From positions 1,709 through 65,708 of the forward strand of contig JAFSNT010000230.1 in NCBI GenBank assembly GCA_017443295.1: 64,000 nt of DNA, read 5' to 3'. Below are positions 1,894 through 60,385 of the stretch, piece by piece. The notes below the pieces were generated by a model that had not been told where the DNA came from, ran no database searches, and worked only from the letters and a program-made list of their open reading frames with translations. Origin of the DNA: Clostridia bacterium (GTDB lineage: Bacteria; Bacillota; Clostridia; Christensenellales; Aristaeellaceae). A program made the translations under genes and the position numbers. Within the stretch, counting starts at the first letter, position 1, and each line of letters starts with the position of its first letter.

Positions 1894-1983
1894 TTTTCCT
1901 TCCTCCTTTTTCCTGTGAAGTCCTTTCACTGTATTGGACGAACCGGAGGAAAAAAAGTTCCGGGAAAAAGAAAAAAATTTTGC

Positions 1984-2017
1984 GCAAAAAACGCCGGAAG
2001 CTTTTGGATTCCGGCGC
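1984..2017 (-). terminator. intrinsic terminator after the 2037..2849 gene
   Basis: gccggaa..ttccggc stem followed by a T-run on the minus strand. Confidence 0.65.
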
Positions 2018-2036
2018 ATCAATATCATTTTGAAAT

Positions 2037-2849
2037 TCAGTCGTCCGCTTCCCGGGATTCCGCGCCGTTGGCCAGGGCCTTGGCGTATTTCTCGGTCATG
2101 AGGTCGATGGAATAGAGGTACGGTTCGCCGTTGATGGCGGCCTCGCATTCCCGGATATCCTGATAGGCGGGATCGGTCTTCATCTGGGCGATGATGGCGC
2201 CCATGCGCTCCTTGTCCAGGTAGAAGGGCTGGCGGGCGAAGTAGTACACGGGGGTGGGGGTGGGGAAAGCCTTGCAGTTGAAGCGCACCATTTCCGCCAC
2301 AGTGCGGGCGTCGTCCTTTTCCAGGGTCAGCACGGCGATTTTGGCGTAATTGTTCGCCATCAGTTCGTCGGAATAGAAGTATTCGTCCTTCTGGCCCTTT
2401 ACGGACTGAATGTCCTTGCAGCTTTCGTCCGCTTTGAGCTGGGCCAGCAGGGCGTCAACGTCCTCCTCGTCCTTGGCGATGAGGGCCTTGGGGGTGATGA
2501 GGGCCGATTTGCAGCGCTCCCGAATGAATTCGGCCAACAGCTGGGCCTTGGTCTTTTCCGGCTCCGGGGGCTGCTCCGGTTCCGGCGCGGAGGGCGGGAA
2601 GGGGTCTTCCACGTCGGGCAGGGACTGCATGTAATCGAAGATATCCGGCTTTTCCGCCGGGGCGGCGGGCTGAGTTTCCCCGGCAGCCTCCATGGCCTGC
2701 TGCTGCATGACCCGTTTTTCCAGCTTGGGGTTGTCCAGCTCCTTGTTCACGGCGGGGTCCAGCGCGTCGCTGAATTCGCCGGGGATCTCGCTGGGCTTGA
2801 GCTCCACTTCCTTGGAGAAGCCGGGCTTGCGGCGTCCGAATAATGCCAT
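2037..2849 (-). CDS. hypothetical protein with internal duplicated C-terminal module
   Basis: ORF 2037..2876 trimmed to the ATG at 2849, with AAGGAGG about 8 nt upstream; the upstream ATGs sit on the RBS. A Pro/Glu-rich linker is followed by two similar modules (..DEYFYSDELMANNYAKI.. and ..GEPYLYSIDLMTEKYAKA..). No family recognised. Confidence 0.6.
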   Translation of the reverse strand: MALFGRRKPGFSKEVELKPSEIPGEFSDALDPAVNKELDNPKLEKRVMQQQAMEAAGETQPAAPAEKPDIFDYMQSLPDVEDPFPPSAPEPEQPPEPEKTKAQLLAEFIRERCKSALITPKALIAKDEEDVDALLAQLKADESCKDIQSVKGQKDEYFYSDELMANNYAKIAVLTLEKDDARTVAEMVRFNCKAFPTPTPVYYFARQPFYLDKERMGAIIAQMKTDPAYQDIRECEAAINGEPYLYSIDLMTEKYAKALANGAESREADD

Positions 2850-2862
2850 TTCCATGACCTCC

Positions 2863-3900
2863 TTATGCGTTGTCAAAGGTGATGGTCTGCCGTCCCGCGT
2901 CCACCGCAGCCTGCACCCCGAAAGGCAGGATGCACCGAGGCCGGGCGTGGCCGATGTTCAGGTTGCACAGGATGGGTAAGTCCGGCTTGCCAATCACTTC
3001 CGTCAGCAGCTTTTTATATTCCGTGTGGTAGGTTTCGTCCATGGGCTTGCCTGCCAGCACGCCGCTGATCGCGTCAAAGACGCCGGTGCTTTTCAGTTTC
3101 AGCAGCGCCTGTTCGTATTTTTCCGGCGGCATCTTTTCTTCGCAGGATTCCAGCAGCAGGATGCGGCCCCGCCAATCCTCCAGGGACGGGAACAGCCCGT
3201 ATTTTTTGCACAGAACGGGCATATCCCCGTACCGTTCGCCGTCAAAGAAATCATACAGGGAATCGATGCAGCCGCCGAGGATTTTCCCTGAAAACCGTTC
3301 CGGCCCTTGCAGCAGTTCAAAGCCCTGATTGGGATGATCGGGGGTCGGTTTTCCGACCTGATCCGGGCCGAAATTGGTTCTTTCCTCGTACCAAATATCG
3401 CTGGGCGTCACTTGCCGGATGGTGCCGGTTTCGATCAGTTCTTCAAAATACTTCCGGGTATACGGCAGCATTTCTTTGTCCATCTCGCACACGTCCGCCA
3501 GGAAGGACTGGCCGTAAAAGGACCTTGCGCCTACCTTGTGCAGCATCAAATGATTGATGGTTGTATCGGAAAAACCCAAAAACACCTTGTCCGTTACGGC
3601 TTTTTTTAATTCGTCATGGTCAAACAGGTACGGCAGCAGCCGGTAGGTATCGTCCCCACCGTTGGCGCACAGGATCATGTCCACCTCGGGATCCTGATAA
3701 GCTGCCAGCAGGTCCTCCGCCCGTTTTTCCGGGTGCTCCTTCACGTAATCGATCCCTTTCAGCGCATGGGGCATGAAACGCACCGATAAGCCGTAAGCCT
3801 CCAGGCGCTTGATCCCAATATCCAGTTCGTGTTTCACAAACGGCTCCCCGATGATGCCGCTGGACAGGCTGACAATGGCGACGGTTTTGATCTTTTGCAT
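2863..3900 (-). CDS. LD-carboxypeptidase / peptidase S66 (LdcA/MccF-like)
   Basis: 345-aa ORF starting MQKIKTVAIVSLSSGIIGE... Length and N-terminal pattern are typical of the S66 family. Assignment by recall. Confidence 0.65.
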   Translation of the reverse strand: MQKIKTVAIVSLSSGIIGEPFVKHELDIGIKRLEAYGLSVRFMPHALKGIDYVKEHPEKRAEDLLAAYQDPEVDMILCANGGDDTYRLLPYLFDHDELKKAVTDKVFLGFSDTTINHLMLHKVGARSFYGQSFLADVCEMDKEMLPYTRKYFEELIETGTIRQVTPSDIWYEERTNFGPDQVGKPTPDHPNQGFELLQGPERFSGKILGGCIDSLYDFFDGERYGDMPVLCKKYGLFPSLEDWRGRILLLESCEEKMPPEKYEQALLKLKSTGVFDAISGVLAGKPMDETYHTEYKKLLTEVIGKPDLPILCNLNIGHARPRCILPFGVQAAVDAGRQTITFDNA

Positions 3901-4054
3901 GTGCTCAACCCCTTTCCGGGAAGAATGTTCTTCATAACGGAAAAAAACTCCTGCACAGAGACTTGCACAGGAGTCACTTTTTACATTATTTGCTCAAATT
4001 GCCCATTTTCATTGAAATATCAAGCCATCCCTTATAGCTTTCTCGGAAGGGGGG

Positions 4055-4098
4055 CTGGGGGAAACCGCTCTTTGGCTACAAAGAGCGGTTTCCCCCAG
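4055..4098. repeat. perfect palindrome, 20-bp stem with 4-nt loop (REP-like)
   Basis: ctgggggaaaccgctctttg gcta caaagagcggtttcccccag. The arms are shared with 12681-12794. Confidence 0.9.
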
Positions 4099-4109
4099 AA
4101 AATATCTCC

Positions 4110-6305
4110 TTAGATCAGGCCCAGCTCTTCCAGCTTATCCGCGCAGTCCTTGAGGTCGAACTTTTCCAGGGTCTCGCGGGTGGGGATGCCGGTTTCCTTG
4201 TTCCAGCCCATGGCCTCGTACCACATATCCAGGCTCTTTTCCCAGTCTTCCCGATCCAGCTTCACGGTGCCCTGCTCGAAGGGCTTGAAGTCCGGCTCCT
4301 TATCGAAGACCCAATCGGAGACCCGGTCATGATCCTTGCGCAGGTTGGTGCTGCCTAAGTTCAGCTTGAAGCTCACGGCGGTCATGACGCGGAGCAGCTG
4401 GCTGATGCGCTCGGAATCCCGTTCCTGATCGTCCCGGGTGTAGGTTTCGCCCAGCACAGCGGACATGTACTTGGCGTCCAGATCCAAATCGCCGATGTAA
4501 TCGCGCTTCTTGCTGGTGGCGATGGTCATGGGGTACATCCAGTTGCACAGGGTGGCGCTGTCGTGCCACTGCTTGCCGATGAAGGCCCACTTCGCCAGCT
4601 TGATCTTGTTCTCGTTGATGGGGGTGTAGTTCTTCTGGGCGTCGGTGCAGCCTTCGCCGAAGAAATGCTCCAGCACGGGCTTGATGATCTCGTTGTATGG
4701 CGCGCCGGAGGAGCAGAAGTTGATCAGGTGATGAATCATGCAGTCACGGTTGTACATCATGCTGTACAGCGTGCCCGCCTGCCAGCAGTTTTCGGGGCCG
4801 TGATGGCGGGGATAGCCGTTGTGGCCGATGTTGAAGTTCTTGCCGTTGACGAAATCGTAGAAGCTGACGCCCGCCACGTTCTTTTCGGGATCGTCCATGC
4901 CCCACTTTTCGTAGAGGCGGTAGGTGCCAAGGCCCAGATCGGAGAACAGGCCCTTGCCTAAGGAAATGCGGCGGTAGACCTCCACGCACCAGCGCGGGTC
5001 GCCGGATTCCATGAGATCCCAGGGGATTTCGTCCCATTCGCCGGGATAGAGGCGATCCGCCACGTCCTTGAGGACGCCGGTGGTATAGGCCATGTTGAAG
5101 TCTTCGTAGAGGTTTCCGTAGTTGCACCACACGCCGTAATCGTCCGCCGCCCGGGAACCGGCGCCGCCCAAGATCATCTTGGCGTCGTTCTCGTCCACGA
5201 AGCTGTGGGTGGACTTGACCTTGTTGCCGTCGGCGTCCTTATGGTCGGGGTACCATTCCAGCATCTTGATGATGGGCATGCAGGTGTTGGAAACGTGGGT
5301 GGGCAGGTCGTAATCCGCCAGGGGATCCATATCGTATTCGGTGTAGCAGCGCACGGGGCAGGAGGAGCAGCCGCCCTGCTTCACGGTGTACTTTTCGGCG
5401 ATTTCGCCAAAGTCGAACACGCCCTTGTTGCAGCGCAGGGCCGCCACGTTGATCTGGCCGCTGGGCTGCTCGCCCATGTCGATGGGACCCTTGGGGGCCT
5501 TGTCCCAGGTGATGCCGGGAGCGCCCTGCCAGCGGTTGTTGGTGGCCACGTATTCGCTCCAGCTCTGGGCGTGGCAGGGAACGGTGTGGTTGTTGTTGCC
5601 GCCCACCAGATCCTTGATCATGTAGTTGGACAGCAGGCGGACCTTCAGAGGTTCGGCGATCTTCACCGCGCCGGTGCCGCGAACCACCACGGCCTTAACC
5701 TTCTTGCTGCCCAGCAGCGCGCCGATGCCAGCGCCGCCGCTGTTGCCGAAGGAGGTGATGATGTTGCTCATGGGCACCAGGTTTTCACCGGCGGGGCCGA
5801 TGGAGGCCACGTCGAATTCCGGGCCGTTTTCCTTGGACAGGGTGGCGTTGGTTTCAAAGGTGCCCTTGCCCCACACGTGGGAAGCGTCCTCGATGGTCAC
5901 CTTATCGTCCTCGATTTTGATATAAACGGGCTTGCTGCTCTGGCCTTCCACGATCATGGCGTCATAACCCGCGTACTTGAAGGCGTGGGCGATATGGCCG
6001 CCCATGTGGGCGTCCACGATGGAATAGCCTTTGCTCCAGCAGGAAAGCAGGGTGATGTTCATGCGGCCGGAGCAGGGCACGCCGGAGGCCGTCAGGGGGC
6101 CGACGCCGAACACGCACTTGGCGTCTGGGCCAAGAGGATCGGTGTCCAGGGGCACTTCGTCCCAAATCACTTTATAGCCAAGGCCCATGCCGCCGATATA
6201 GGGCTTATACTTGGGCAGGGTGTCTTCCTTGGTAATCGCGCCGGTGGTCAGGTTCACGCGGACGATCGTACCCGCCCAGCCGTTGATGCCATTTTTCACA
6301 GACAT
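4110..6305 (-). CDS. aldehyde:ferredoxin oxidoreductase family W/Mo-pterin enzyme (YdhV-like, 731 aa)
   Basis: AOR N-terminal signature MSVKNGINGWAGTIVRVNLTTG..YIGGMGLG. FeS motif GGCSSCPVRC. No signal peptide of its own. Confidence 0.85.
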   Translation of the reverse strand: MSVKNGINGWAGTIVRVNLTTGAITKEDTLPKYKPYIGGMGLGYKVIWDEVPLDTDPLGPDAKCVFGVGPLTASGVPCSGRMNITLLSCWSKGYSIVDAHMGGHIAHAFKYAGYDAMIVEGQSSKPVYIKIEDDKVTIEDASHVWGKGTFETNATLSKENGPEFDVASIGPAGENLVPMSNIITSFGNSGGAGIGALLGSKKVKAVVVRGTGAVKIAEPLKVRLLSNYMIKDLVGGNNNHTVPCHAQSWSEYVATNNRWQGAPGITWDKAPKGPIDMGEQPSGQINVAALRCNKGVFDFGEIAEKYTVKQGGCSSCPVRCYTEYDMDPLADYDLPTHVSNTCMPIIKMLEWYPDHKDADGNKVKSTHSFVDENDAKMILGGAGSRAADDYGVWCNYGNLYEDFNMAYTTGVLKDVADRLYPGEWDEIPWDLMESGDPRWCVEVYRRISLGKGLFSDLGLGTYRLYEKWGMDDPEKNVAGVSFYDFVNGKNFNIGHNGYPRHHGPENCWQAGTLYSMMYNRDCMIHHLINFCSSGAPYNEIIKPVLEHFFGEGCTDAQKNYTPINENKIKLAKWAFIGKQWHDSATLCNWMYPMTIATSKKRDYIGDLDLDAKYMSAVLGETYTRDDQERDSERISQLLRVMTAVSFKLNLGSTNLRKDHDRVSDWVFDKEPDFKPFEQGTVKLDREDWEKSLDMWYEAMGWNKETGIPTRETLEKFDLKDCADKLEELGLI

Positions 6306-8436: not shown

Positions 8437-8534
8437 AAAAAGTGGAAATTGGAAAGTGAAAAGTGAAAATTTGAACAGCCGAATGTAAGGGCAAAATAAA
8501 TCTTCACTTTCCACTTTTAACTTTTCACTTTTTT
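8437..8534. repeat. heptad-arm hairpin element B (AAAAGTG/GAAAGTG flavour, ~5 heptads per arm)
   Basis: Left arm 8437-8471 and right arm 8501-8534 are imperfectly complementary. The right arm touches the stop codon of the GntR gene. Confidence 0.85.
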
Positions 8535-12668: not shown

Positions 12669-12680
12669 CGGGAGAAAATA

Positions 12681-12794
12681 TCTGGGGGAAACCATTCTTT
12701 GCCGTCCGGGGCCTTCCGGCCCGGTCTCCGCTGAAAACCGGCCCAAGGGCAGGTTTTCCGGGCGCTTCGACCCCAAAGAATGGTTTCCCCCAGA
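12681..12794. repeat. same palindrome arms enclosing a 72-nt structured insert
   Basis: tctgggggaaaccattctttg (12681-12701) and caaagaatggtttcccccaga (12774-12794). Inner hairpins include ccggggccttccggcccgg. Confidence 0.85.
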
Positions 12795-12870
12795 CCCCCT
12801 TCCAAGAAAGCCATAAGGGAGATGTTATTATGATTATCCTGTTTGAATCAGTAACAAAGGAGTGATTTCT

Positions 12871-13834: not shown

Positions 13835-13949
13835 GGAAAAGTGAAAAGTGGAGAGTGAAAAGTGAAAATTTGAATAGAAAATGCCTTGTGTCTGCCGATT
13901 ATTTTCGGCCATATCTATTTCCACTTTCCACTTTTCACTTTCCACTTTC
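13835..13949. repeat. heptad-arm hairpin element C (AAAAGTG/GAGAGTG flavour)
   Basis: Left arm 13835-13871, right arm 13917-13949. Same flavour as B, and the loop starts with the same tttgaaNag. Confidence 0.85.
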
Positions 13950-15497: not shown

Positions 15498-15510
15498 AAG
15501 GCATATATAT

Positions 15511-15561
15511 GGGGGCTTCTTCAGCCCCCAAACCCCCGAACCAGGGAGGTGACCTCCCTGG
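15511..15561. repeat. twin GC-rich hairpins (REP-like)
   Basis: gggggcttcttcagccccc and ccagggaggtgacctccctgg. The reverse complement resembles 60316-60370. Confidence 0.8.
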
Positions 15562-15586
15562 ACCCTCACTCATGTCGTAAATTACC

Positions 15587-15707
15587 GCTCCTGGGCAGGC
15601 GGCAAAGCCGCCTACGGTGCGCGAAGCGCACCTGAAAAACGAGGATATGACCAGGAAAAAGCTCGCTTTTTCCCTGGCATATGCCTCGTTTTTCTTTGCC
15701 CAGGAGC
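15587..15707. repeat. cloverleaf-like composite element, copy 1 (outer stem plus 3 hairpins)
   Basis: Outer stem gctcctgggca/tgcccaggagc. Hairpins ggcggcaaagccgcc, ggtgcgcgaagcgcacc and the long hairpin containing ccaggaaaaagctcgctttttccctgg. Confidence 0.8.
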
Positions 15708-15912
15708 TTGCAATATTTCTTTTCCAAACAGGCGCAAACTGTTTGTTTTCGTGCGTTTGCTGTTCGCCTGATGGGGCGCAGGGGGCGAAGTCCCCTGCCG
15801 CACAGACGAACCGCCGATGACCGCCTGTGGCGGAAATTTCATCGGCGGTGAGATCAGCCGAAAGGGAGCAATCTCCCCATGAAGGGGAGTTGCGACCTTT
15901 GAGGCTGCGGAA

Positions 15913-15935
15913 TCAGGGGCCGCGGAGGCCCCTGA
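15913..15935. repeat. GGGGCCGCGGAGGCCCC hairpin
   Basis: tcaggggccgcggaggcccctga. Same core as 37397-37421 and 43080-43104. Confidence 0.85.
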
Positions 15936-18815: not shown

Positions 18816-18848
18816 AGGACGCCCCCTTTCACGTGAACCCGTTATAGT

Positions 18849-18958
18849 AGAGTTGAGAGTTAAGAGTTGAGAGTTGAGATCATATAGTGGTCATCATGGA
18901 AGAATCGCATTTGATGCACTATATACATCTCAACTCTCCGCTCTCAACTCTCAACTCT
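18849..18958. repeat. heptad-arm hairpin element D (AGAGTTG flavour, 32-nt arms)
   Basis: agagttgagagttaagagttgagagttgagat versus the reverse complement of 18927-18958. Mismatches occur only in the central heptad. 46-nt loop. Confidence 0.9.
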
Positions 18959-18969
18959 ATTTGACCCAA

Positions 18970-33990: not shown

Positions 33991-34100
33991 GAAGGTAGGA
34001 GGTAGGAAGTAGGAGGTAGGAGGTTTTATTATGTTCATAAAAGTGCAGGGTTTCTTCCTTTTGTGGACTATATATGCTTCCTACCTCCTACTTCCTACCT
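33991..34100. repeat. heptad-arm hairpin element F (GGTAGGA/AGTAGGA flavour)
   Basis: aggtaggaagtaggaggtaggagg (34000-34023) versus the reverse complement of 34077-34100, 23/24. Confidence 0.9.
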
Positions 34101-36308: not shown

Positions 36309-36390
36309 CGTCCGATAAGCGGCATGCAGTTGGAATCGTGGCTGTTATCCGACACATATGCCGCGCATTGTTGAGAAAGAAGGCCAAACC

Positions 36391-36972
36391 ATGGAGCAGG
36401 AAAAAAAGGAAGACAGGCGCGTGCGCCGCACCAAAAAGCTGCTGACCCAGGCCCTGACCCAGCTTTTGCAGGAAAAGCAGGCCAAGGAAATCACGGTCAA
36501 GGAGCTGACCGAGCTGGCGGACATGAACCGGGGCACCTTTTACCTATACTATAAAGACATTTTCGATATGCTGGAAAAAATCGAGGACAGCTTATTTGAA
36601 GCCCTGGACGCCATTGTGGCCCGCCACGAGGAAGAAGCCTTTTCCGCGAAAACCAAGCCCATGCTGCTGGACTTGTTCACCTTCGTTCAGGAAAACCAGG
36701 AAATGTGCCGGGTGCTGCTCAGCGCCAACGGCGATATGAATTTCCTGCACCGGCTGAACGAGGTGGTGCGGGAAAAATGCCGCAGCGTCTGGCTGGCCCT
36801 GCGCAAAGGCCGGGACGACGACGCTTTTGACTACCATTACAGCTTCGTCGTCTTCGGCTGCGCCGGGCTGATCCGCGCCTGGGTGAACCGGGGCTGCCCC
36901 GAAACGGCGGCGGAAATGGCTGAGCTGGCTGACCGCATGATCCAGCGCGGCAGCCTGACGGATATGGAATAA
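36391..36972 (+). CDS. TetR/AcrR-family transcriptional regulator
   Basis: MEQEKKEDRRVRRTKKLLTQALTQLLQEKQAKEITVKELTELADMNRGTFYLYY is a TetR HTH. Divergent from the MMPL gene. Confidence 0.85.
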   Translation: MEQEKKEDRRVRRTKKLLTQALTQLLQEKQAKEITVKELTELADMNRGTFYLYYKDIFDMLEKIEDSLFEALDAIVARHEEEAFSAKTKPMLLDLFTFVQENQEMCRVLLSANGDMNFLHRLNEVVREKCRSVWLALRKGRDDDAFDYHYSFVVFGCAGLIRAWVNRGCPETAAEMAELADRMIQRGSLTDME

Positions 36973-37158
36973 AACCTCCGGGGGCACGGCTCACGCACGA
37001 ATGAGAAATTGAAATATGACGGGGATACGCTGGGCGCTCCGCGCGCCCAGACCTGCGTCAGGGGCGTGACGCCCCTGAACCCCCACCTGGCGAAGCAGCT
37101 TGCAAGACTATACCGAACAAGCGCCGCCTGCCGCGCTGGGGTTTACGAAAGCATGACG

Positions 37159-37284
37159 GCTTCTGGCCCAAGAAAGCCGGGAAAATCCCAGGGAAAAAGC
37201 TCGCTTTTTCCTCGGGATTATTCCCTGGCTTTCCCCGGATGCTTCGCATCCGGGTTGGCCGCCAAAGGCGGCCGGGCCAGAAGC
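37159..37284. repeat. cloverleaf-like composite element, copy 2 (inverted relative to copy 3)
   Basis: Outer stem gcttctggccc/gggccagaagc. The same three hairpin modules appear in reversed order. Confidence 0.85.
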
Positions 37285-37396
37285 ACAAGACCGTCAAGTT
37301 TTGCTATCCTTTTCATGCAACAGCGGGAACCATGTTGTCTCTACCCATCGAGTAATTTCCGCAGGAGAAGGTGCAGGGGATCATCCCCTGCCGCCG

Positions 37397-37421
37397 GGTC
37401 TGGGGCCGCGGAGGCCCCAGC
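37397..37421. repeat. GGGTCTGGGGCCGCGGAGGCCCCAG hairpin
   Basis: 25-mer identical to 43080-43104. Confidence 0.9.
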
Positions 37422-37494
37422 GGTTCCCTCTCTCCAACAAATCTCAACAGGCCGCGCCCGAAACGGACGCGGCCTGTTGTTTGCTGTAAAGAGC

Positions 37495-38313
37495 TTATTC
37501 GGCGGGCACGGTGAACACGGGGGCGAAGCCGCTGTCCACGATCAGATCGTACACTTTCTGGGTGTAAACGACCTTTTCCAGGGCCTTGACGAAATCGGCC
37601 TCGGCGTTTTCGGGCCGCACGGCGAAGATATTCACATAGGCTTCGGCAGCTTGGGAGCCGGGCTGTTCAAAGTACACGGCGTCCTTACCGGGGTTCAGGC
37701 CGTTCTGGGAGGCGTAGTTGCCGTTGATGACGGCGAAAGCGCCGCCTTCACGCAGACGGGGGGTCAGCTCGGCGTTCACATCCTGGAACTCCAGGCCCTT
37801 GGGGTTGCCCACGTCGTACTTGGTCACGGTGCTTTCCAGGGTGGTGCCTTCGGGCAGTTCCACCAGACCGGCGTCCGCCAGCAGAATGAAAGCGCGGGTC
37901 ATGTTCACGGGATCGTTGGGCACATAGATGATGTCGCCTTCGGTCAGTTCGTCCAGGCTGGTCTTCTGGCCGGGATAGATGCCCATGGGTTCAAAGTGGG
38001 TGGGCACCACCATGACGAGCTGTTTGTCCGCTTCCACGGATTCATTGTAGCCGTTCAGATAGGGGATGTGCTGGAAGAAGTTGGCCAGGGTGTCGCCCGC
38101 GGCAGTGGAAGGATTCTCGGTGGTGTAGTCGTTGCAGGGCGCGCCCAGCTCCAGTTCAAAGCCCAGGGCAGCCAGATCGTCCCGCACCAGCTCCAGGATC
38201 TCATAGTGGGGGTTGGCGGTAGCGATAATGGGCAGGGTTTCCGCCACGGCGGACGCGGCGCCCAGCGCCAGGATCAGGGCCAGCAGGATGGCAAGAGTCT
38301 TTTTCATAGTCAT
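37495..38313 (-). CDS. metQ: methionine ABC transporter substrate-binding protein (MetQ/NlpA family)
   Basis: Signal peptide MTMKKTLAILLALILALGAASAVA. NlpA-family pattern. Last gene of the metN-metI-metQ order. Confidence 0.85.
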   Translation of the reverse strand: MTMKKTLAILLALILALGAASAVAETLPIIATANPHYEILELVRDDLAALGFELELGAPCNDYTTENPSTAAGDTLANFFQHIPYLNGYNESVEADKQLVMVVPTHFEPMGIYPGQKTSLDELTEGDIIYVPNDPVNMTRAFILLADAGLVELPEGTTLESTVTKYDVGNPKGLEFQDVNAELTPRLREGGAFAVINGNYASQNGLNPGKDAVYFEQPGSQAAEAYVNIFAVRPENAEADFVKALEKVVYTQKVYDLIVDSGFAPVFTVPAE

Positions 38314-40280: not shown

Positions 40281-40413
40281 CTTAACGAACGAAATCGGGC
40301 GTCAAGCGGCGCAAAGCAAACAGCGCGTGGGGCAGTGCCCGCGCAGGGACATTCGCATCATACACCGTTCCATGGGGCACGCTCCTTTCCGGCTGTCGCC
40401 GCTGACTGGGTCT

Positions 40414-40443
40414 ATTATAAGGGATGGGGGCTTTTTGTGTCAA
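40414..40443 (-). promoter_or_regulatory. promoter of the metNIQ operon
   Basis: On the minus strand: TTGACA, 18 nt, TATAAT. Predicts a leader of about 225 nt. Confidence 0.6.
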
Positions 40444-40504
40444 GGGCTTGAAGCTGTACTATAATTGTATTACCAGCTATAGATTTTAGCTATATGTTTT
40501 AGCG

Positions 40505-40518
40505 CACAGAGTTCAGAT
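40505..40518. repeat. truncated heptad hairpin (left-arm end of E flavour only)
   Basis: cacagagttcagat plus the loop start atttatatggtc resembles 22389-22412. No right arm nearby. Lies at the left edge of the low-GC segment. Confidence 0.55.
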
Positions 40519-40569
40519 TTATATGGTCGATCAATTTGAGCATTTTCGCGTCACAAAACCCGCATGGGC

Positions 40570-41235
40570 TTATTCTTCCATCAACTCATGCGAAGCCAGC
40601 TTTGCTTCACCCGCGTCAATTTGGGAAGTAATGCGTTCCAAATGGGCAAGGTTCGCATCCGAGCAAAATGGGTCAATGGATTCTTTTAGAACTTTTCGCA
40701 TGACCGCCTGCCCGTTTTCCCTCGCCACCTCAACAAATCCTGCTTTTTGATAAAGGCGAACAGGTCCTTGATAATCGAAGTCATTCCGTTTATCAGAAAG
40801 TTTAGGGTATCCTTCAACAGCCGCGTATCCCTTTGCTTTCGCGTCCTTGCAAACGCTGTCGATCAACGCGGAAGCGACGCCCATACCTCGATATGCGGGC
40901 GCGATTTCAAAGCAAACAATGGAAACGGTTTTTCCGCAGGGATTCTTCCTGGCGAATTCCGGAACGAACCCGGCATAGCTTTCCATATCCGCCGCGTTGC
41001 ACCATCCAACGGGCAGCTTTCCGTCATAAGCCAAATAGCCTTGAATCTTGTTCCTGTTCAGCATGTCCACGGCGTATTTCCGCAGCGTAGCTTTTACGCC
41101 AAAGGTTTGAAACTCGCTGACCATCCGCTTGATTTCTTCTTCATCCTGATTGGGGGACGTGCAATAGCATGGCCCGTTGGGATTATCATCCGTAAACGCG
41201 CGATGATCGAAAAAATCCAGATAATCCGCATACAA
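40570..41235 (-). CDS. GNAT-family N-acetyltransferase (low-GC gene)
   Basis: 221 aa with a GNAT core (..FEIAPAYRGMGVASALI..). Clearly more AT-rich than the flanking genes. Confidence 0.7.
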   Translation of the reverse strand: MYADYLDFFDHRAFTDDNPNGPCYCTSPNQDEEEIKRMVSEFQTFGVKATLRKYAVDMLNRNKIQGYLAYDGKLPVGWCNAADMESYAGFVPEFARKNPCGKTVSIVCFEIAPAYRGMGVASALIDSVCKDAKAKGYAAVEGYPKLSDKRNDFDYQGPVRLYQKAGFVEVARENGQAVMRKVLKESIDPFCSDANLAHLERITSQIDAGEAKLASHELMEE

Positions 41236-41798
41236 TGCCGGGGGTCAAAGGTTTGATAACGATTTCTTTCACGAACGTATGCCCTCCGAAGTAAATTCCG
41301 CTTCATCCGACAGCATTTTAGCACATCTTCCCCCGCCCCGCAAGGCGCCGCAAAAAAAGCATGGGAACGGTTTTCTGTGCATTGCCGCAAGCACGGATGG
41401 CAGTATAGAAAACCGCCTTCTATCCATGCGAAAAAAAAATTCATTCTCCCATGCTACAAAAAAAGCGCCACTGGCTGAACAGTGACGCAGCTTTCAAATA
41501 CTTGCAATTATAGGTCGTTGTTTCTCCGTTGATTAGATTCTTCTTGTATGGTAATATCTTTTCCAATCAAAGTTTGAAATTCAGCCTTACTGAAAAGCCT
41601 ATACCCGATATGCAAGAATGGATTGCTCGTAGAACTATAAACGGAAATATGCATGTCAATCAGCAAATAGCAATCATCAAAATGCACAGGGGACGGTTCT
41701 CTGTGTTGACCACCGTACTTGCGGCAATGCACATAGAACCGTCCCCTGTGTTCCTTTTCAAGATTCTACACAACAATAACTGAAAAAGAATAAGGAGC

Positions 41799-42251
41799 TT
41801 ATGGCTGGGCTAACTTTCTTGTTCCTGCATTATCACCTGTTGCAAGATAGCCTTCCGCGAATACACCAACAGATTCAGGGAGACTGAATTGTCCTGTAGC
41901 ATTTATAACAGTCCATAATCCGTTTATTATTCCCCATATAGGTACTGCTACATATGTCGCAACCGTAATTGCTGCCCCAGTTAGCTTTCCTGTCCAGTTT
42001 CCTTTTCCGGCGGTAATGGCGACTTTGCCGTCACCATTGTTCTTGATAGTCACATAACACTTAGTGTCCCCACCCAAAAGACCATTGTAAAATCCCACTT
42101 CCCTGGTATTTGCGTTAAGAACATGAATCCCTTTTTCTGGGTCATATTCATGTGCTACTGACATGCCTTTTTTATCAAAAAACCCAACAATTGCATCGCA
42201 TAATTCGTTTTCGGTATGTCCGTTCAATTCTAATGTCCTGTCCATGCTCAA
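41799..42251 (-). CDS. hypothetical protein with C-terminal hydrophobic segment (low-GC gene)
   Basis: 150-aa ORF, no family recognised. Probable TM region LTGAAITVATYVAVPIWGIINGLWTVI. Divergent from the XRE regulator. Confidence 0.5.
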   Translation of the reverse strand: MSMDRTLELNGHTENELCDAIVGFFDKKGMSVAHEYDPEKGIHVLNANTREVGFYNGLLGGDTKCYVTIKNNGDGKVAITAGKGNWTGKLTGAAITVATYVAVPIWGIINGLWTVINATGQFSLPESVGVFAEGYLATGDNAGTRKLAQP

Positions 42252-42598
42252 TACCTCCAGTCCTTTTTTTGAATAAATACGTATGTCATTTCACGTAACT
42301 GTTTGAAGTTCATTCTGACATGTTAAAAATAGCAGAAAGAAATTCAGTTTTCCAACTCTGTATCCTATCTTTGTACGATCCTGTAATCAAGAAAATCGAG
42401 AACAATCACCTTCCCTTTTTTATCATCCTGAATCGTATTGATGAATTTTCCTTTTACATTTTTCTCTCCCTCCCTAACTGCTACTTGTCATGTAATTCGT
42501 CTTCTCTAAATTATCACATTTCGTGATTTTTGTCAATATCCCGTTTTGTGATAAATATAATGAAATAGATTACTGAATGTCGGAAGGGGGAAATTGCC

Positions 42599-42829
42599 TT
42601 GCGTCTACGCGACCTTCGGGAAGATCACGACTTGACGCAGACAGAACTGGCAAGGCAACTTCATATTCGACAAAGCACGTATTCCCAATACGAAAACGGG
42701 CAACGACAGATTCCTTTAGAAGCGTTGATAAAACTTGCGCTTTACTATCACACATCAGTTGATTATATCCTGGAATTAACAGATGAGGTTACTCCCTATC
42801 CATTGTCAAAGCGATACATAAAAGTATGA
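42599..42829 (+). CDS. XRE-family helix-turn-helix transcriptional regulator
   Basis: TTG start after GGAAGGGGG. LRDLREDHDLTQTELARQLHIRQSTYSQYENGQRQIPLEALIKLALYY is a Cro/C1 HTH. Confidence 0.8.
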   Translation: MRLRDLREDHDLTQTELARQLHIRQSTYSQYENGQRQIPLEALIKLALYYHTSVDYILELTDEVTPYPLSKRYIKV

Positions 42830-42851
42830 ATCATTAAAACTATCTGCTTAT

Positions 42852-42976
42852 GCTTCTGGCCCGGCGGCTGAAAGCCGCCTGACCGGATGCAAAGCATCCG
42901 GTGAAAGCCAAAGAGAACCCCCAGGGGAAAGCTCGATTTCCCTTGGGGGTTCCCTGGCTTTCATGGGGCCAGAAGC
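42852..42976. repeat. cloverleaf-like composite element, copy 3
   Basis: Outer stem gcttctggccc/gggccagaagc. Hairpins ggcggctgaaagccgcc, ccggatgcaaagcatccgg and the long hairpin gaaagcc..ggctttc. Confidence 0.85.
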
Positions 42977-43079
42977 CCACTATCTGTTATTTCTCCCAGC
43001 GACAGGCGAACGTTGTCTGTTTTATTCGTTCAAGTCAATTCGCCTAATGGTGTCCAGAGGACGAAGTCCTTTGGCGCGG

Positions 43080-43104
43080 GGGTCTGGGGCCGCGGAGGCC
43101 CCAG
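43080..43104. repeat. GGGTCTGGGGCCGCGGAGGCCCCAG hairpin
   Basis: 25-mer identical to 37397-37421. Confidence 0.9.
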
Positions 43105-43111
43105 TATAGCC

Positions 43112-46100
43112 CTACAGCTGGAACAGCGTCACTTGGTTGGTTTCGGCCAAATCTTTCAGGCAGCCGTGCTCCCGCAAAAGGTCGATGACGGCGCTGGAGG
43201 CCTTGCCCCGGTTTTTCAGGTCTTCCACGGAAATGAAGGGATCGCTGCGGGCGTCCACGATGCCCTGGGCGGCGGCTTCGCCCAGGCCCCCAAGGGCGGT
43301 GAAGGGCACGCGGAGGCCTCTGTCGCCCTCGGGAATGAAGCGCTTCACATCGCTCTTGTAGAGGTCGGCGGGCAGGAAATAGTAGCCCCTCGCCATCATT
43401 TCCAACACCAGCTCCATGGCGGTGATGGCGTCCTTGTCCTTGGCGGTGGTTTTCTTTTCCTGGTCGGCCTGATAGGCTTCTTTCAGCTTCTGGCGAAGCT
43501 GGTCGATGGGCAGGATCATGGTGCAGGCGTCGAAGCCGTCGCCGCGAATGGTGAAGTAGGCGGCGTAGTAGGCCTGGGGGTAGTATACCTTGTAGTAGGC
43601 CACGCGCAGGGCCATGGTCACGTAGGCGGCGGCGTGGCCCTTGGGGAACATGTACTTGATTTTGCGGCAGCTTTCCTCAAACCAGGCGGGCACGTTGTGC
43701 TCGTGCATGGCGTCGGCCATTTCGGGCTTTAAGCCCTTGCCCTTGCGCACAAATTCCATGGTGTCAAAGGCCATTTTGGCGGGGACGCCCTGCTGCATGA
43801 GCTGGTTCATGATGTCCTCGCGGGTGCAGAGGCATTGACTTAAAGGCACGATGCCCTTGTCGATCAGGTCTTTGGCGTTGCCTAACCACACGTCGGTGCC
43901 GTGGGACAGGCCGGAAATGCGGATCAGCTCCTGCATGGTTGAGGGGTGGGTGTCCTCTAACATCTGGCGCACAAAGGCGGTGCCGAATTCAGGCACGCCG
44001 AAGGTGCCGGTGTTGCAGTTGATTTCCTCCTTGGTGACGCCCAGGGCCTTGGGGGAGGAAAAGAGGCTCATTACGCCCTTATCGTCCAGGGGGATCTTTT
44101 TGAAGTTCACCCCGGTCAATTCCTCTAACATATGCAGCATGGTGGGATCGTCGTGGCCTAAGATGTCCAGCTTGACCAAAATGTCGTGCATGGAGTTGAA
44201 ATCGTAGTGGGTGGTGACGGTGGTGGATTCCACGTCGTCCGCCGGGTGCTGCACGGCGGTGAACTGGCAAATGTCGTATTGCTGGGGCAGCACCACCATG
44301 CCCGCCGGGTGCTGGCCCGTGGTGCGCTTCACGCCTACGCAGCCCGCCGCCAGGCGCTCCTTTTCCGCGTCGGAGACGGTCATGTTCCGTTCTTCCAAGT
44401 ATTTCAATACGTAGCCGTAAGCCGTTTTTTCCGCTAAGGTGCCGATGGTGCCCGCGCGGAACACGTATTCCGGGCCGAACAGCTCTTTCACGTAGTTGTG
44501 GGCGGTGGGCTGGTATTCGCCGGAGAAGTTCAGGTCGATATCCGGCACCTTGTCGCCCTTGAAGCCAAGGAAGGCTTCAAAAGGAATGTCGAAGCCGTCC
44601 TTGACCAACGGATTGCCGCAGACCGGGCATTTTTTGTCCGGCAAATCCACGCCGATGGTGTACTGGGGCGGAATGTCAAAATCGGCCTTGCGGCAGGTTT
44701 CGCAGCGGTAATGGGGCGGCAGGGAATTGATTTCCGTGATGCCGGTGAGGAAGGCCACGAAGGAGGAACCCACCGACCCACGGCTGCCCACCACGTACCC
44801 GTCCGCCAGGGATTTTTTCACCAGCTTTTGGGCGATGGAATAAAGCGTGCAGTAGCCGTAGCCCACGATGGCGTTCAATTCCTTGTCGATGCGCTTCTGT
44901 ACGATGTCCGGCAAATCGTCCCCGTACAGGCGGTGGGCGGTGCCGTAGGTGAGATTTTTGATATCGTCCTCCGCTTCGGGCCAGAAGGGGGAGAAGGTGG
45001 TTTTGCCCTCCGGGTGCTTGGGGAACAGGCCCACTTCGCCGATGCGGGAGGCGACGAGCTTGGGGTTTTTGACGACCACCTCGTAGGCCTTTTCCTTGCC
45101 CAGATAGGAGAATTCCTTCAGCATTTCGTCGGTGGTCTTGAAGTACAGGGGCGGCTGATTGTCGGCGTCGGAAAAGCCCTGGCCCGCCTGGATGATGGAG
45201 CGGAAAACCGCGTCCTCCGGGTCGAGAAAATGCACGTCCCCGGTAGCGCACACGGGCAGGCCCAGCTTTTCGCCTAAGCGCACGATGCGGCGGTTGTATT
45301 CCCGCAAATCCTCCTCGCTGCCTACCCGGCCCTCCCGGAGCAGGAATTCATTGTTGCCGATGGGCTGAATCTCCAAATAATCGTAGAACCGGGCGATTTT
45401 GCCGAGCTTTTCATCGCTGGCCCCGTCCACCATAGCGGAAAACAGCTCGCCCGATTCGCAGGCGCTGCCCACGATCACGTCCTTGCGGTACTTTTGCAGC
45501 ACGGCCCGCGGAATGTGGGGTTTGCGGCGGAAGTATTTCAGGTGGCTTTCCGAAATCATGTGGTTCAGGTTGGTCATGCCGTCCTGGCTGGCGGCCAGCA
45601 GTACGATATGCCAGGAATTGCCCAGGGTGTAGCCGGTGGACACGTCGTTTAAGTCCCGCAGCTTTTCCGCGCCCTTCTTCTTTGCGTCGTCGATCATGCG
45701 GGCCAGACACTGGGCGGTGGCGGCGGCGTCGTTGACGGCCCGGTGGGCGTCCTTCAAGGACACGCCCAAGCGCTTGCACACGCTGCCGAGCTTGTGGGTT
45801 TTCAGTTCGGGGTACAGCTTCCGGGCCAGGGTGAGGGTGTCCAGGTGGGGCACGTCGTAGGTCATCCCCAAACGCTTCAATTCGCTGTCCAGCACGGCGC
45901 AGTCGAACTTGGCGTTGTGGGCGGCGATGGGGCAGCCGTCCATGAAGGCCAGCAATTTGGGCATAGCCTCCGCGATGGTGGGCTGACCGCGGAGCATTTG
46001 ATCGGTGATGTGGGTGATTTCGGTGATCTTGGGCGGCAGCAGCATGCCGGGGTCGATCAGCTCCCCGTAGCTGTCCACCACCTGGCCGTTGGCCAATTTC

Positions 46101-48093: not shown

Positions 48094-48455
48094 GAGGAGT
48101 GAACCACGCACGCGGTTCCTCTTTGAAGTTCTTACCTAACTTGCGATTCGCATCGCAAGAACAGTCGTCACTTGGCCGAGTGGCGGCTGTTCTTTTGTTT
48201 GCGATGCGTTTCGCTGATGACGATGGTCACAGTGTACTTTCCAATATGGAATGTAATACGCTTTCGCACCACCCCCCTTTTCAGAAGGTGTCCGAGCATT
48301 CCGCAACCTCAATCGGCGCAACTCCGCACTGCGGAGATTGCTTGTTTCGGTTGACCAAAGCGCTGACGATATACCCGCCACTGGCGGTCGTCAGCGCTTT
48401 GTCCACCTGCGCGTTTGTTGTTCACTCCCGGCCCTGACGGATCAGGGCTTTTTTA
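48094..48455 (+). ncRNA. orphan ~360-nt structured RNA candidate, class unknown
   Basis: TTGACA-16 nt-TATAAT promoter at 48060-48087. Several long hairpins (48140-48159, 48157-48194, 48358-48401). GC-rich stem plus T-run terminator at 48431-48455. The only ORF (48099..48437) starts inside the GAGGAG with no spacing. Confidence 0.5.
48431..48455 (+). terminator. intrinsic terminator of the orphan RNA
   Basis: gccctga cgga tcagggc followed by TTTTTTAT. Confidence 0.7.
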
Positions 48456-56165: not shown

Positions 56166-56276
56166 ACCCGTTCCTCCTGTTCAATTGATTTGCTGATACT
56201 TATTTTACTCTGTTTTTGCTGATTAAGCAAGCGTTTCCTTGCTGTTTTTGCAATTATGCGGCACAGCTGCAAGAAA

Positions 56277-56385
56277 GTGGGAGGTAGGAGGTAGGAAGTA
56301 GGAGGTTTTATCTTGTTCACAAAAGCGAAAAGCTGCCGTTCTCGACAATAATATACCTCCTACTTCCTACCTCCTACCTCCTACT
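56277..56385. repeat. heptad-arm hairpin element G (GGTAGGA/AGTAGGA flavour, 30-nt arms)
   Basis: Left arm 56277-56306 versus right arm 56356-56385, 29/30. The right arm contains the stop codon of the FMNAT gene. Arms are nearly identical to element F. Confidence 0.9.
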
Positions 56386-56938
56386 TTTTATTCGTCAATT
56401 CTCGCAGCTTAGGGGATAAAGGCCGTCCTAACATTTCTTCCGCCAAAGCGGCATCTCCAGCCAAAATGGCCTTGCGGATAGCGGTGCTGGACACGCGGGT
56501 GCCGTCCAACAGGGCAACCGGCGGGCACACCGTCAGCCCCACGCCCGCTTCCCGGCACAGCGTTTCCAGCTCCTTCACGCCCCAGCCGCCCCGGTAGCCG
56601 AAGCGGTGATCGTCGCCGCAGACCACGTGGCTGGCGTTCAGGCTGCCCAGCACGATGCCGCGGAAAAAAACGTCGCCGGACATGCGGCGCATGTCCTCAT
56701 TGAACGCGCTCACCGCCACCCGGTCCGCCCCCGCCGCTTTGAGCAGCGTTTCCCGCTCGCTTAGGGTGGTCAGGGCAAAATCCTTTTCTCCCGGCGCCCG
56801 GTCAAAGGTGTGGGCGCAAACGATCAGCCCTTTGTCCCGGGCGATGTCCGCCGCCGCCCGCAGCAGCGACAGGTGCCCCTTGTGTACCCCGTCAAAAAAG
56901 CCCAAACATACAACGCTTGGCGCGTTGAGTTCATCCAT
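56381..56938 (-). CDS. FMN adenylyltransferase (FAD synthetase domain only, no riboflavin kinase domain)
   Basis: ORF 56381..57478 trimmed to the ATG at 56938 (AAAGGAGA RBS). GFFDGVHKGH and SSTAIRKAI motifs. Only 185 aa. Confidence 0.75.
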   Translation of the reverse strand: MDELNAPSVVCLGFFDGVHKGHLSLLRAAADIARDKGLIVCAHTFDRAPGEKDFALTTLSERETLLKAAGADRVAVSAFNEDMRRMSGDVFFRGIVLGSLNASHVVCGDDHRFGYRGGWGVKELETLCREAGVGLTVCPPVALLDGTRVSSTAIRKAILAGDAALAEEMLGRPLSPKLRELTNKK

Positions 56939-60235: not shown

Positions 60236-60323
60236 GTAAATGATACGAGGAATTTAAGTTTGTTCAAGCATCAGCGGAAACAACGTTTTTTCGACGTGTC
60301 AGGAAATATCCGCTATTGAGGGT

Positions 60324-60370
60324 CCAGGGGCATCATGCCCCTGGTCGGGGTCTGGGGCGGATAGCCCCAG
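60324..60370. repeat. twin GC-rich hairpins (REP-like)
   Basis: ccaggggcatcatgcccctgg followed by ggggtctggggcggatagccccag. Same family as 15511-15561 in the opposite orientation. Confidence 0.8.
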
Positions 60371-60385
60371 GGTATCCCCGTCTCG

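Follow-up and report, generated by a model that had tools for sequence, protein, structure and literature searches.

A composite palindromic DNA repeat with a branched core in uncultured rumen Clostridia, probably maintained as DNA

The segment between the tetR and metQ genes of an uncultured Clostridia bacterium (positions 36,973–37,494 of a 64,000-nt stretch of contig JAFSNT010000230.1, assembly GCA_017443295.1, hereafter the window) is probably a single copy of a composite palindromic DNA repeat that is non-coding, undescribed, and present at high copy number in rumen Clostridia, its hairpins being maintained at the level of DNA. The repeat is most likely selfish or mosaic palindromic DNA of the kind represented by repetitive extragenic palindromes (REPs), bacterial interspersed mosaic elements (BIMEs), REP doublets forming hairpins (REPINs), and transposable elements of the miniature inverted-repeat type (MITEs); its means of spread we infer. 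We found no description of this family in the literature, nor an Rfam record. Proteobacteria are the best-known hosts of interspersed palindromes of the REP/REPIN type, and the unit seen here is a large, ordered composite with a branched core. The copy described first, copy A, lies between convergent genes, as an earlier sequence-only reading of this DNA had stated: a TetR_C_8 protein is encoded at 36358–36972 (+) and an NlpA/MetQ lipoprotein at 37495–38313 (−).

The core of copy A is a module (Table 1) whose outer stem, GCTTCTGGCCC / GGGCCAGAAGC, recurs exactly in a second module, that of copy B, and at no further site within the window. Module A is the reverse complement of module B, as had been read: a repeat finder paired inverted arms at 37206–37289 and 42847–42930 (74%), and under a covariance model the minus strand of copy A scored 131.9 bits and its plus strand 37, and the plus strand of copy B reached 116.1 bits. 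The stem differences noted between the two are likewise real, hairpin 1 being ggccgcc-aaa-ggcggcc in A and ggcggc-tgaaa-gccgcc in B, and the inner helix stays paired though different (aatccc/gggatt vs. aaccccc/gggggtt). Both strands of both modules folded into a four-way junction, one outer stem around three hairpins, at −93.5 to −95.1 kcal/mol and z scores of −10.0 to −11.7 (module A, −93.5 to −93.9 kcal/mol and −10 to −11). The 25-mer GGGTCTGGGGCCGCGGAGGCCCCAG has two occurrences in the window and is expected by chance never (0 in 100 shuffles); the second was located correctly by the earlier reading, and the first lies at 37396–37420 rather than 37397–37421. That reading also took the module to be inverted relative to the 25-mer, which is no inversion event: the two inverted arms of a composite can both end in the same terminal hairpin, and the orientation appears reversed because the plus-strand 25-mer of A belongs to the upstream arm and that of B to the downstream arm.

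Each arm of the composite consists of a hairpin, hpS, and a terminal hairpin, hpT; one arm is an inverted copy of the other. Read in the orientation of the module, the unit runs hpT′, hpS′, upstream spacer (about 85 or about 30 nt), module (125 nt), downstream spacer (about 75 nt), hpS, hpT, where primes denote reverse complements; the arm hairpins are 19–25 nt long, the inverted arms about 80 nt, and the units 340–420 bp. The module comprises the outer stem, hairpin 1, hairpin 2, and a long hairpin, and that hairpin order defines the family orientation. Terminal hairpins (GGTCTGGG...CCCAG) were found reverse-complemented upstream of the module at −132 to −136, or at −78 to −82 in the short form, and in direct orientation downstream at +97 to +103. 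A consensus of 49 copies showed conservation over about 410 nt, with GGGAAACG/CGTTTCCC immediately beyond the ends. An arm profile returned 197 matches in 96 sources, left arms always on the minus strand and right arms always on the plus strand around the module (in copy A, 37019–37098 and 37357–37431, respectively), and the arm hairpins occur as variants that are interchangeable among copies. The two arms of copy A carry different hpT stems (CTGGGGCC..GGCCCCAG vs. CTGGGCGC..GCGCCCAG); because the arms of one element often differ in this manner, each hairpin pairs locally and not arm with arm. The description of the segment as a composite block of REP-like palindromes is supported. An invertible DNA switch, in which the module flips between fixed arms, was considered and rejected because the module never flips relative to its own spacers; arm distances and spacers keep one polarity in all copies with a detected arm hairpin. 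An additional outer motif (…CAAATCCCAATTTCTCATTCATGCGTGAGCC), termed motif X, is present in many copies and adjoins arms in L017, L018, L031, L043, L046, and other loci, and BLAST homology of copy A with L018 begins at the outer end of this motif, position 36985. A small open reading frame (ORF) in motif X was discarded, its reading frame not being kept between copies.

The repeat is widespread in its hosts. Searching a genome collection with the 24-mer core of the 25-mer yielded 46 loci in five rumen Clostridia metagenome-assembled genomes (MAGs; RUG10975, Red_deer_4_mag_93, RGIG3226, RGIG7947, and SRR873601_bin.84), one of them labeled Christensenellaceae. A covariance model built on four modules and then run over 376 kb of loci from the five MAGs detected 54 strong modules, each with 60–144 bits on its better strand and about 35 on the opposite one, and 48 further full-length modules came from metagenomes scanned for the long-hairpin tip. 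Module words reached 40–70 times the flank depth in four DNA metagenomes and arm words 8–36 times, and we place the copy number at roughly 50 per genome. Near-identical whole units occur in unrelated gene contexts: copy A shares 92.9% identity over 421 nt with L044:5794–6214, in an unrelated context in another MAG, the homology stopping at the element borders, and in DNA metagenome contigs other copies part from A at 37021/37022 and at 37422. A contig joining 37289 to 37385, with 95 nt skipped, was present in all four DNA runs and one RNA run; this joint probably reflects short-spacer copies elsewhere and no deletion at the copy A locus. One full composite (L001, IMGVR_UViG_3300028591_007245, 1826–2227) lies on a 4.3-kb contig filed as viral in IMG/VR, a label that may be wrong, and plasmid and phage collections gave no match to the element.

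Comparisons of orthologous loci indicate turnover around the copies and exchange between them. Wherever a locus of the MetQ orthologs compared (95, 92, 91, and 82% identity) reaches beyond the stop codon, the terminator hairpin that follows metQ is kept and the composite is absent. The metNIQ operon and its terminator are conserved across the lineages compared, and the gene downstream of metQ varies by lineage (window vs. L168–L175), being tetR, a PGA_cap gene, an Fe-ADH gene, or an unidentified convergent ORF. Since the orthologs keep the terminator without the composite and their downstream genes differ, the composite is not part of the metQ expression signals and sits at a synteny breakpoint; with different downstream genes, these loci show composite absence only and not a clean empty site. 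The region upstream of polC is also not syntenic. Between copy B and its ortholog in L021, four-fold sites of polC are 85.1% identical, the module about 90%, and the spacer about 80%, and a single indel is the sole difference in the 57 nt of hpS plus hpT. The orthologous loci L003 and L007 have flanks, upstream arm, and module in common and differ in downstream spacer and hpS variants. Taken together, these comparisons indicate that copies trade pieces (gene conversion), that the arms are under purifying selection, or both.

Pairing in the module family is truly preserved. Among 52 copies, 95.9% of the cells in paired columns were paired and both sides had changed in 29 of 50 pairs; with 100 copies (99 distinct, from three subfamilies, the five MAGs, and metagenomes) fitted to the covariance model, the corresponding values were 95.8% and 35 of 50 pairs, with double changes in 471 cells. 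None of 500 shuffles reached any of the pairing measures, and sliding the partners by 1–3 columns reduced pairing to 40–58%. A check independent of the model, using a MAFFT alignment of 18 diverse copies and RNAalifold, recovered the outer stem, the long hairpin, and parts of hairpins 1 and 2, with compensatory changes in 26 of 39 pairs. The earlier reading would have been overturned had substitutions in a larger set of copies shown no bias toward pair preservation; across 100 copies the bias toward keeping pairs is strong. The helix covariation that characterizes structured RNAs is thus present. Compensatory changes are also common in mobile REPINs (PMC3116915), and replication template switching can produce compensatory changes together with loop inversion in a single step, homogenizing the arms of inverted repeats and inverting their spacers (PMC8794818, PMC8604942).

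The strand-specific constraint of an RNA family, i.e., G-U tolerance on one strand, conserved loops, and defined expression, was not found. When the 100 copies were folded both ways, the sense strand was more stable in 48 and the antisense strand in 50 (mean difference −0.8 ± 3.7 kcal/mol), with 109 G-U pairs in the sense folds vs. 87 in the antisense folds; in the model alignment, G-U/U-G cells numbered 79 vs. 57 A-C/C-A cells (p = 0.07). Loops occur in both complementary forms, CTCG in 25 copies and CGAG in 19 at the tip of the long hairpin, and AAA in 20 and TTT in 10, or GAA in 9 and TTC in 2, in hairpin 2, and the complementary forms alternate among otherwise similar copies. This switching explains why the plus-strand tip of copy A, GCTCGC, resembles those of copy B and of copy C, a third copy in the window, despite the reversed hairpin order of A. 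Loop inversion with arm homogenization is the outcome of template switching between inverted repeats (PMC8604942, PMC8794818). A move from covariation to a functional structure of RNA type is not supported, in view of strand symmetry, loop flips, random orientation, an RNA depth no higher than copy number, and the absence of copies B and C from RNA contigs. More generally, the family is a worked example in which strong covariation alone does not equal functional RNA, and in which strand symmetry and loop inversion tell DNA palindromes from RNA genes.

Evidence on transcription comes from assembled metatranscriptome contigs; the RNA and DNA runs derive from different studies, and depth is a poor measure. 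Module words over copy A had depths of 110–507 in RNA runs, with flanks at 5–13, and of 400–4800 in DNA runs, with flanks at 8–90, so the RNA excess matches copy number (about 40–70 times) and is not RNA-specific. It is most improbable, in our judgment, that the modules are genes for trans-acting or processed small RNAs, that is, structured non-coding RNA with expression of its own. The strong covariation would suit such genes, as would the high module word depth in metatranscriptome contigs (150–500 vs. 5–13 for flanks), which lies relatively above that of arms and spacers when compared with the DNA runs, and a weak shape match to the Rfam family BSR0739; yet the RNA-to-flank ratio (10–100 times) is no higher than the DNA-to-flank ratio (40–70 times), the unique words of copies B and C have a depth of 0 in RNA contigs, no promoter-like site was found in 36900–37560, and folding and G-U content show no strand preference, with loops that invert and orientations that are random. 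At gathering thresholds Rfam returned 0 matches in the whole window, and we accordingly rejected a known RNA family; permissive searches gave sub-threshold shape matches alone (BSR0739, microRNA precursors, His leader), of which the best, Brucella BSR0739, reached 32.8 bits (E = 3e-5) vs. the 191 needed and has topology alone in common with the module.

A cis-acting role in RNA, for which selection would keep the composite, we consider unlikely. Transcribed at gene 3′ ends, its very stable helices might shield upstream mRNA from 3′–5′ exonucleases or insulate transcription units, and such a role would depend on structure only, work in either orientation, and be compatible with an origin as selfish DNA. 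All copies are intergenic, with housekeeping neighbors (TetR, MetQ, PolC, RimM, TrmD, and the like). Among the 36 elements for which both flanking genes could be called by codon-usage score, 12 were in convergent, 20 in tandem, and 4 in divergent settings; 32 of the 36 thus face at least one gene 3′ end, where the element usually starts 0–50 nt past the stop codon, and starts lie farther away where a 5′ end faces. At polC, hpT begins 7 nt after the stop codon (43112–43114, minus strand) and no other hairpin follows. RNA contigs run from tetR to 37021 and from the helix-turn-helix (HTH) gene beside copy B 14 nt into module B, the arms are more conserved than four-fold sites between orthologs, and the equal folding of both orientations suits a role free of orientation. 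Against it, the only hairpin with a real T tail in 36900–37560 is the terminator of metQ itself (37479–37445), no U tract follows any hairpin of the element, metQ orthologs work with their own terminator and without the composite, and metQ RNA contigs end at that terminator, short of the element. Gene conversion between copies, as in L003 vs. L007, explains the arm conservation equally well, and nothing accounts for a barrier needing a four-way junction. Relative to transcription entering the element, module orientation is random, with 32 sense and 22 antisense cases (p = 0.22), and the transcribed strand is the more stable one in 9 of the 20 tandem contexts. Promoter or terminator function of the repeat was rejected on the same absence of a promoter-like site and of any terminator other than that of metQ.

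If the repeat is palindromic DNA, its hairpins would be important in DNA form, as folds that single strands adopt in replication or transposition. Two processes would keep up the pairing: a need for recognition of the structures by a trans-acting enzyme, the leading guess being a RAYT-like transposase (REP-associated tyrosine transposase, HUH/Y1 type), which was not found here, and replication template switching, which copies one hairpin arm from the other and inverts loops as well. As a side effect, read-through from a neighboring gene would yield a very stable RNA structure in either orientation, which might serve as a barrier at the 3′ end in the manner of E. coli REPs. The four-way junction itself may be what is recognized, rather than a side product of palindrome maintenance, as folded single-stranded DNA (or RNA) that serves as the substrate of a dedicated trans-acting enzyme in these Clostridia; we regard this as distinctly unlikely. 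The enzyme may then be a HUH transposase of the RAYT-like kind, with a clover-shaped substrate, or a reverse transcriptase that uses the retron-like outer stem, short hairpins, and long hairpin; the depths in RNA contigs also hint that the module might survive as a stable piece of RNA. Were it true, it would represent a new type of structure-addressed mobile element system in Firmicutes, and for any cognate enzyme the four-way junction would be an unusual substrate. Very unlikely, in turn, is that the palindromes are protein-binding or topological DNA sites, cruciform-prone sequences that organize supercoiling or the nucleoid between transcription units. E. coli BIMEs bind gyrase, IHF, and Pol I, and the regular mosaic of GC-rich palindromes at fixed spacing, its intergenic placement with enrichment at convergent and tandem junctions, and its strand symmetry would all fit; lineage-specific presence at the metQ locus and piecewise exchange speak against a site-specific need, and the function of BIMEs is itself debated.

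Several observations weigh against palindromic DNA maintained as such. Junction geometry and hairpin order are fixed across three diverged subfamilies, which suggests constraint beyond the self-correction of palindromes. A structure-only RNA role independent of orientation may be compatible with the strand tests, and in the RNA contigs of one study the ratio of consensus module words to arm and spacer words is about ten times that in DNA contigs, which could mean a stable RNA fragment. No RAYT or Y1/HUH transposase was detected in about 1 Mb, a weak test that covered these loci and used an IS200 TnpA tblastn query; the 20 neighboring ORFs are ordinary or without a Pfam match and include no transposase. 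No two outward-facing arms lay more than 400 bp apart in the same 1 Mb, so no autonomous parent was seen. The ends of the composite are ragged, without a target-site duplication or a clean filled/empty pair among the copies compared, and a weak CAAACTT direct repeat near module borders is neither adjacent to them nor consistent.

The repeat shares features with several known kinds and departs from each. As in REPs and BIMEs, hpS and hpT are short, GC-rich, imperfect palindromes that lie outside genes, mostly following gene 3′ ends, and number in the tens to hundreds, and they alternate in orientation with conserved linkers at fixed spacing, forming mosaics of interchangeable hairpin variants. 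The element differs from the REPs and BIMEs of enterobacteria and pseudomonads in its Clostridia host and its unit of about 400–490 bp, and from any BIME in its 125-nt four-way-junction core; the 5′ GTAG-type tetranucleotide of REPs is not evident, the conserved lead being GG(G)T. Like REPINs, it has two inverted REP-like ends around a spacer, is non-autonomous, persists in a lineage, and shows compensatory changes and solo-arm remnants. REPINs, however, are about 70–110 nt long and form one long hairpin in which the left end pairs with the right, whereas here the arms pair locally around an asymmetric, branched center and the single long hairpin was not seen. A “clover” alternative fold has been proposed for REPIN recognition in the manner of IS200 (Bertels and Rainey 2011, PMC3116915). 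The terminal inverted repeats (with motif X also in some copies), non-coding content, size below 600 bp, dispersed intergenic placement, modular build (BOX elements being boxA-boxB-boxC), co-transcription with neighbors, and strong predicted structure are shared with MITEs such as Correia/NEMIS, ERIC/IRU, BOX, RUP, and bcr1, to none of which sequence similarity was found (no Rfam match). Set against MITEs, no target-site duplication was seen among the copies compared, nor a parent insertion sequence with the same ends in about 1 Mb, and the repeat is GC-rich whereas many MITEs are AT-rich. The module also recalls retron msr-msd, with an outer stem (a1/a2) around a long hairpin preceded by one to three short ones; retron RNA is single-copy and lies beside a reverse transcriptase gene, whereas the module has about 50 copies per genome, housekeeping neighbors, two strands that fold, and loops that flip, and a retron identity was ruled out by copy number and neighbor genes.

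Variation among copies concerns both completeness and sequence. Arm doublets without a module (L022, L002), solo arms (60308–60380 in the window, L012, L025, L034, L040), and partly deleted modules that have lost the long hairpin, either alone or with hairpin 2 (L019 and L042), were recovered, and the L031 module is split by another small element. The three module subfamilies have different helices and the same architecture. In subfamily D, from metagenomes, the outer stem and hairpins 1 and 2 differ in sequence and length, and hairpin order and junction geometry are kept. Its contigs (L057, L061, L066, L073, L098, L120, L121, L142, L154, L160) are mostly from Ga0079305; their downstream arm is the usual hpS plus hpT and their upstream arm a different, AT-richer hairpin, GTTTCTCTCTTTGAGTCAAAGAGAGAAAC, so the symmetric two-arm form is not universal. 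Because the composites break metagenome assemblies, with contigs ending at repeat borders, they matter for the quality of rumen MAGs, and because they lie at breakpoints of synteny and at the junctions of islands, a part in the genome rearrangement of this lineage is probable.

Table 1. Positions in the window of the composite repeat copies, their parts, and the metQ terminator.
Feature	Positions	Strand	Remarks
Copy A as a whole	about 37022–37422, ragged extensions to 36985 and 37447		module on minus strand
Outer motif X of composite A (cacggctcacgcacgaatgagaaattgaaatatgacggggatacg)	36985–37029	−	optional extension beyond terminal hairpin; recurs inverted at ends of many copies
hpT, downstream arm of A	37030–37053	−	minus strand GGTCTGGGCGCGCGGAGCGCCCAG; covarying variant of the 25-mer
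hpS, downstream arm of A	37058–37078	−	tcaggggcg-tga-cgcccctga
Downstream spacer of A	37079–37158	−	minus strand ...tttcgtaaaccccagcgcggcaggcggcgcttgttcgg...ttcgccaggtggg; conservation in module orientation over 49 copies
Module A, four-way junction	37159–37284	−	outer stem 37159–37169 / 37274–37284; long hairpin 37172–37233
Module A inner hairpins	hairpin 2, 37234–37254; hairpin 1, 37257–37273	−	family order on minus strand
Upstream spacer of A (module orientation)	37285–37372	−	family comparison
hpS, upstream arm of A	37373–37391	+	gcagggga-tca-tcccctgc
25-mer GGGTCTGGGGCCGCGGAGGCCCCAG, hpT of upstream arm of A	37396–37420	+	repeat boundary 37422 in DNA contigs
Intrinsic terminator of metQ, outside repeat	37445–37479	−	terminator scan; hairpin kept after metQ orthologs without composite
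Module B	42852–42976	+	outer stem 42852–42862 / 42966–42976
Module B hairpins	hairpin 1, 42863–42879; hairpin 2, 42883–42901; long hairpin, 42903–42962	+	
Downstream spacer of B	42977–43053	+	aligns with minus-strand spacer of A and family consensus
hpS, downstream arm of B	43054–43074	+	ccagaggac-gaa-gtcctttgg; arm-profile match 43035–43114
25-mer, hpT of downstream arm of B	43080–43104	+	end 7 nt short of polC stop codon; identical in ortholog L021
Composite C (subfamily C)	15503–15935	+	upstream arm 15510–15561; module 15588–15706; hpS 15778–15798
Composite C, distal part	inserted element E2, 15806–15913; hpT, 15913–15935	+	
Solo arm without module	60308–60380	+	hpS 60324–60344; hpT 60349–60370

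The module of copy C, which the earlier reading overlooked, keeps the architecture, with an outer stem (ctcctgggca/tgcccaggag) and a hairpin 2 that differ. Composite B has no upstream arm; a low-GC island with the HTH gene abuts its module. This island (40400–42850, 35–50% GC vs. about 60%) encodes a GNAT acetyltransferase, small unknown ORFs, and the HTH gene, which is of XRE type, and it ends precisely at the first base of module B. The orthologous locus, L021:1–2142, has a different AT-rich segment that ends at the same base, and the edge of module B therefore looks like a recombination or integration hot spot. A target-site duplication at module B was rejected, the repeated ACTATCTG..TTAT being the normal start of the downstream spacer plus a remnant of the upstream spacer.

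The element inserted in composite C represents a second small repeat, E2, of about 108 nt, running from GACGAACC to TTGAGGCTGCGGAA, with a further window copy at 48298–48402 (−) and others in L015, L016, L017, L027, L030, L031:3646–3752, L037, L039, L051, L061, L072, L080, L093, L102, L103, and L120. Its single-stranded motifs GAGATCA, CGAAA, GAGCAAT, and TTGCGAC are conserved, and three covarying helices show compensatory changes in 13 of 30 pairs; E2 has no match in Rfam. The composite hairpins are its targets: insertions always directly follow a G run on the 5′ side of hpT, with one case lying within hairpin 1 of a module and one in a different repeat, and E2 looks like a hairpin-targeting miniature element. 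One DNA contig has an E2-less joint (15801 to 15913), depth is 40–80 times that of the flank in DNA and RNA contigs alike, and RNA contigs contain a peculiar joint that leads back from 15910 to 15835 across an intervening CCAG. A further family of inverted repeats (…GGAAGGGGGGCTGGGGGAAACCGCTCTTTGG…CAAAGAGC) occurs at 4028–4109 vs. 12671–12820, and its copy at L030:4795–4965 carries an E2 insertion. Short-period repeat blocks, a class distinct from the composite, consist of CACTTT/CACTTTT, CTCAACT, or GGTAGGA units in inverted pairs 28–46 nt apart (8445–8532, 13837–13949, 18848–18959, 33991–34043, 56273–56387, and L029:360–420); they are intergenic and occur in related MAGs too.

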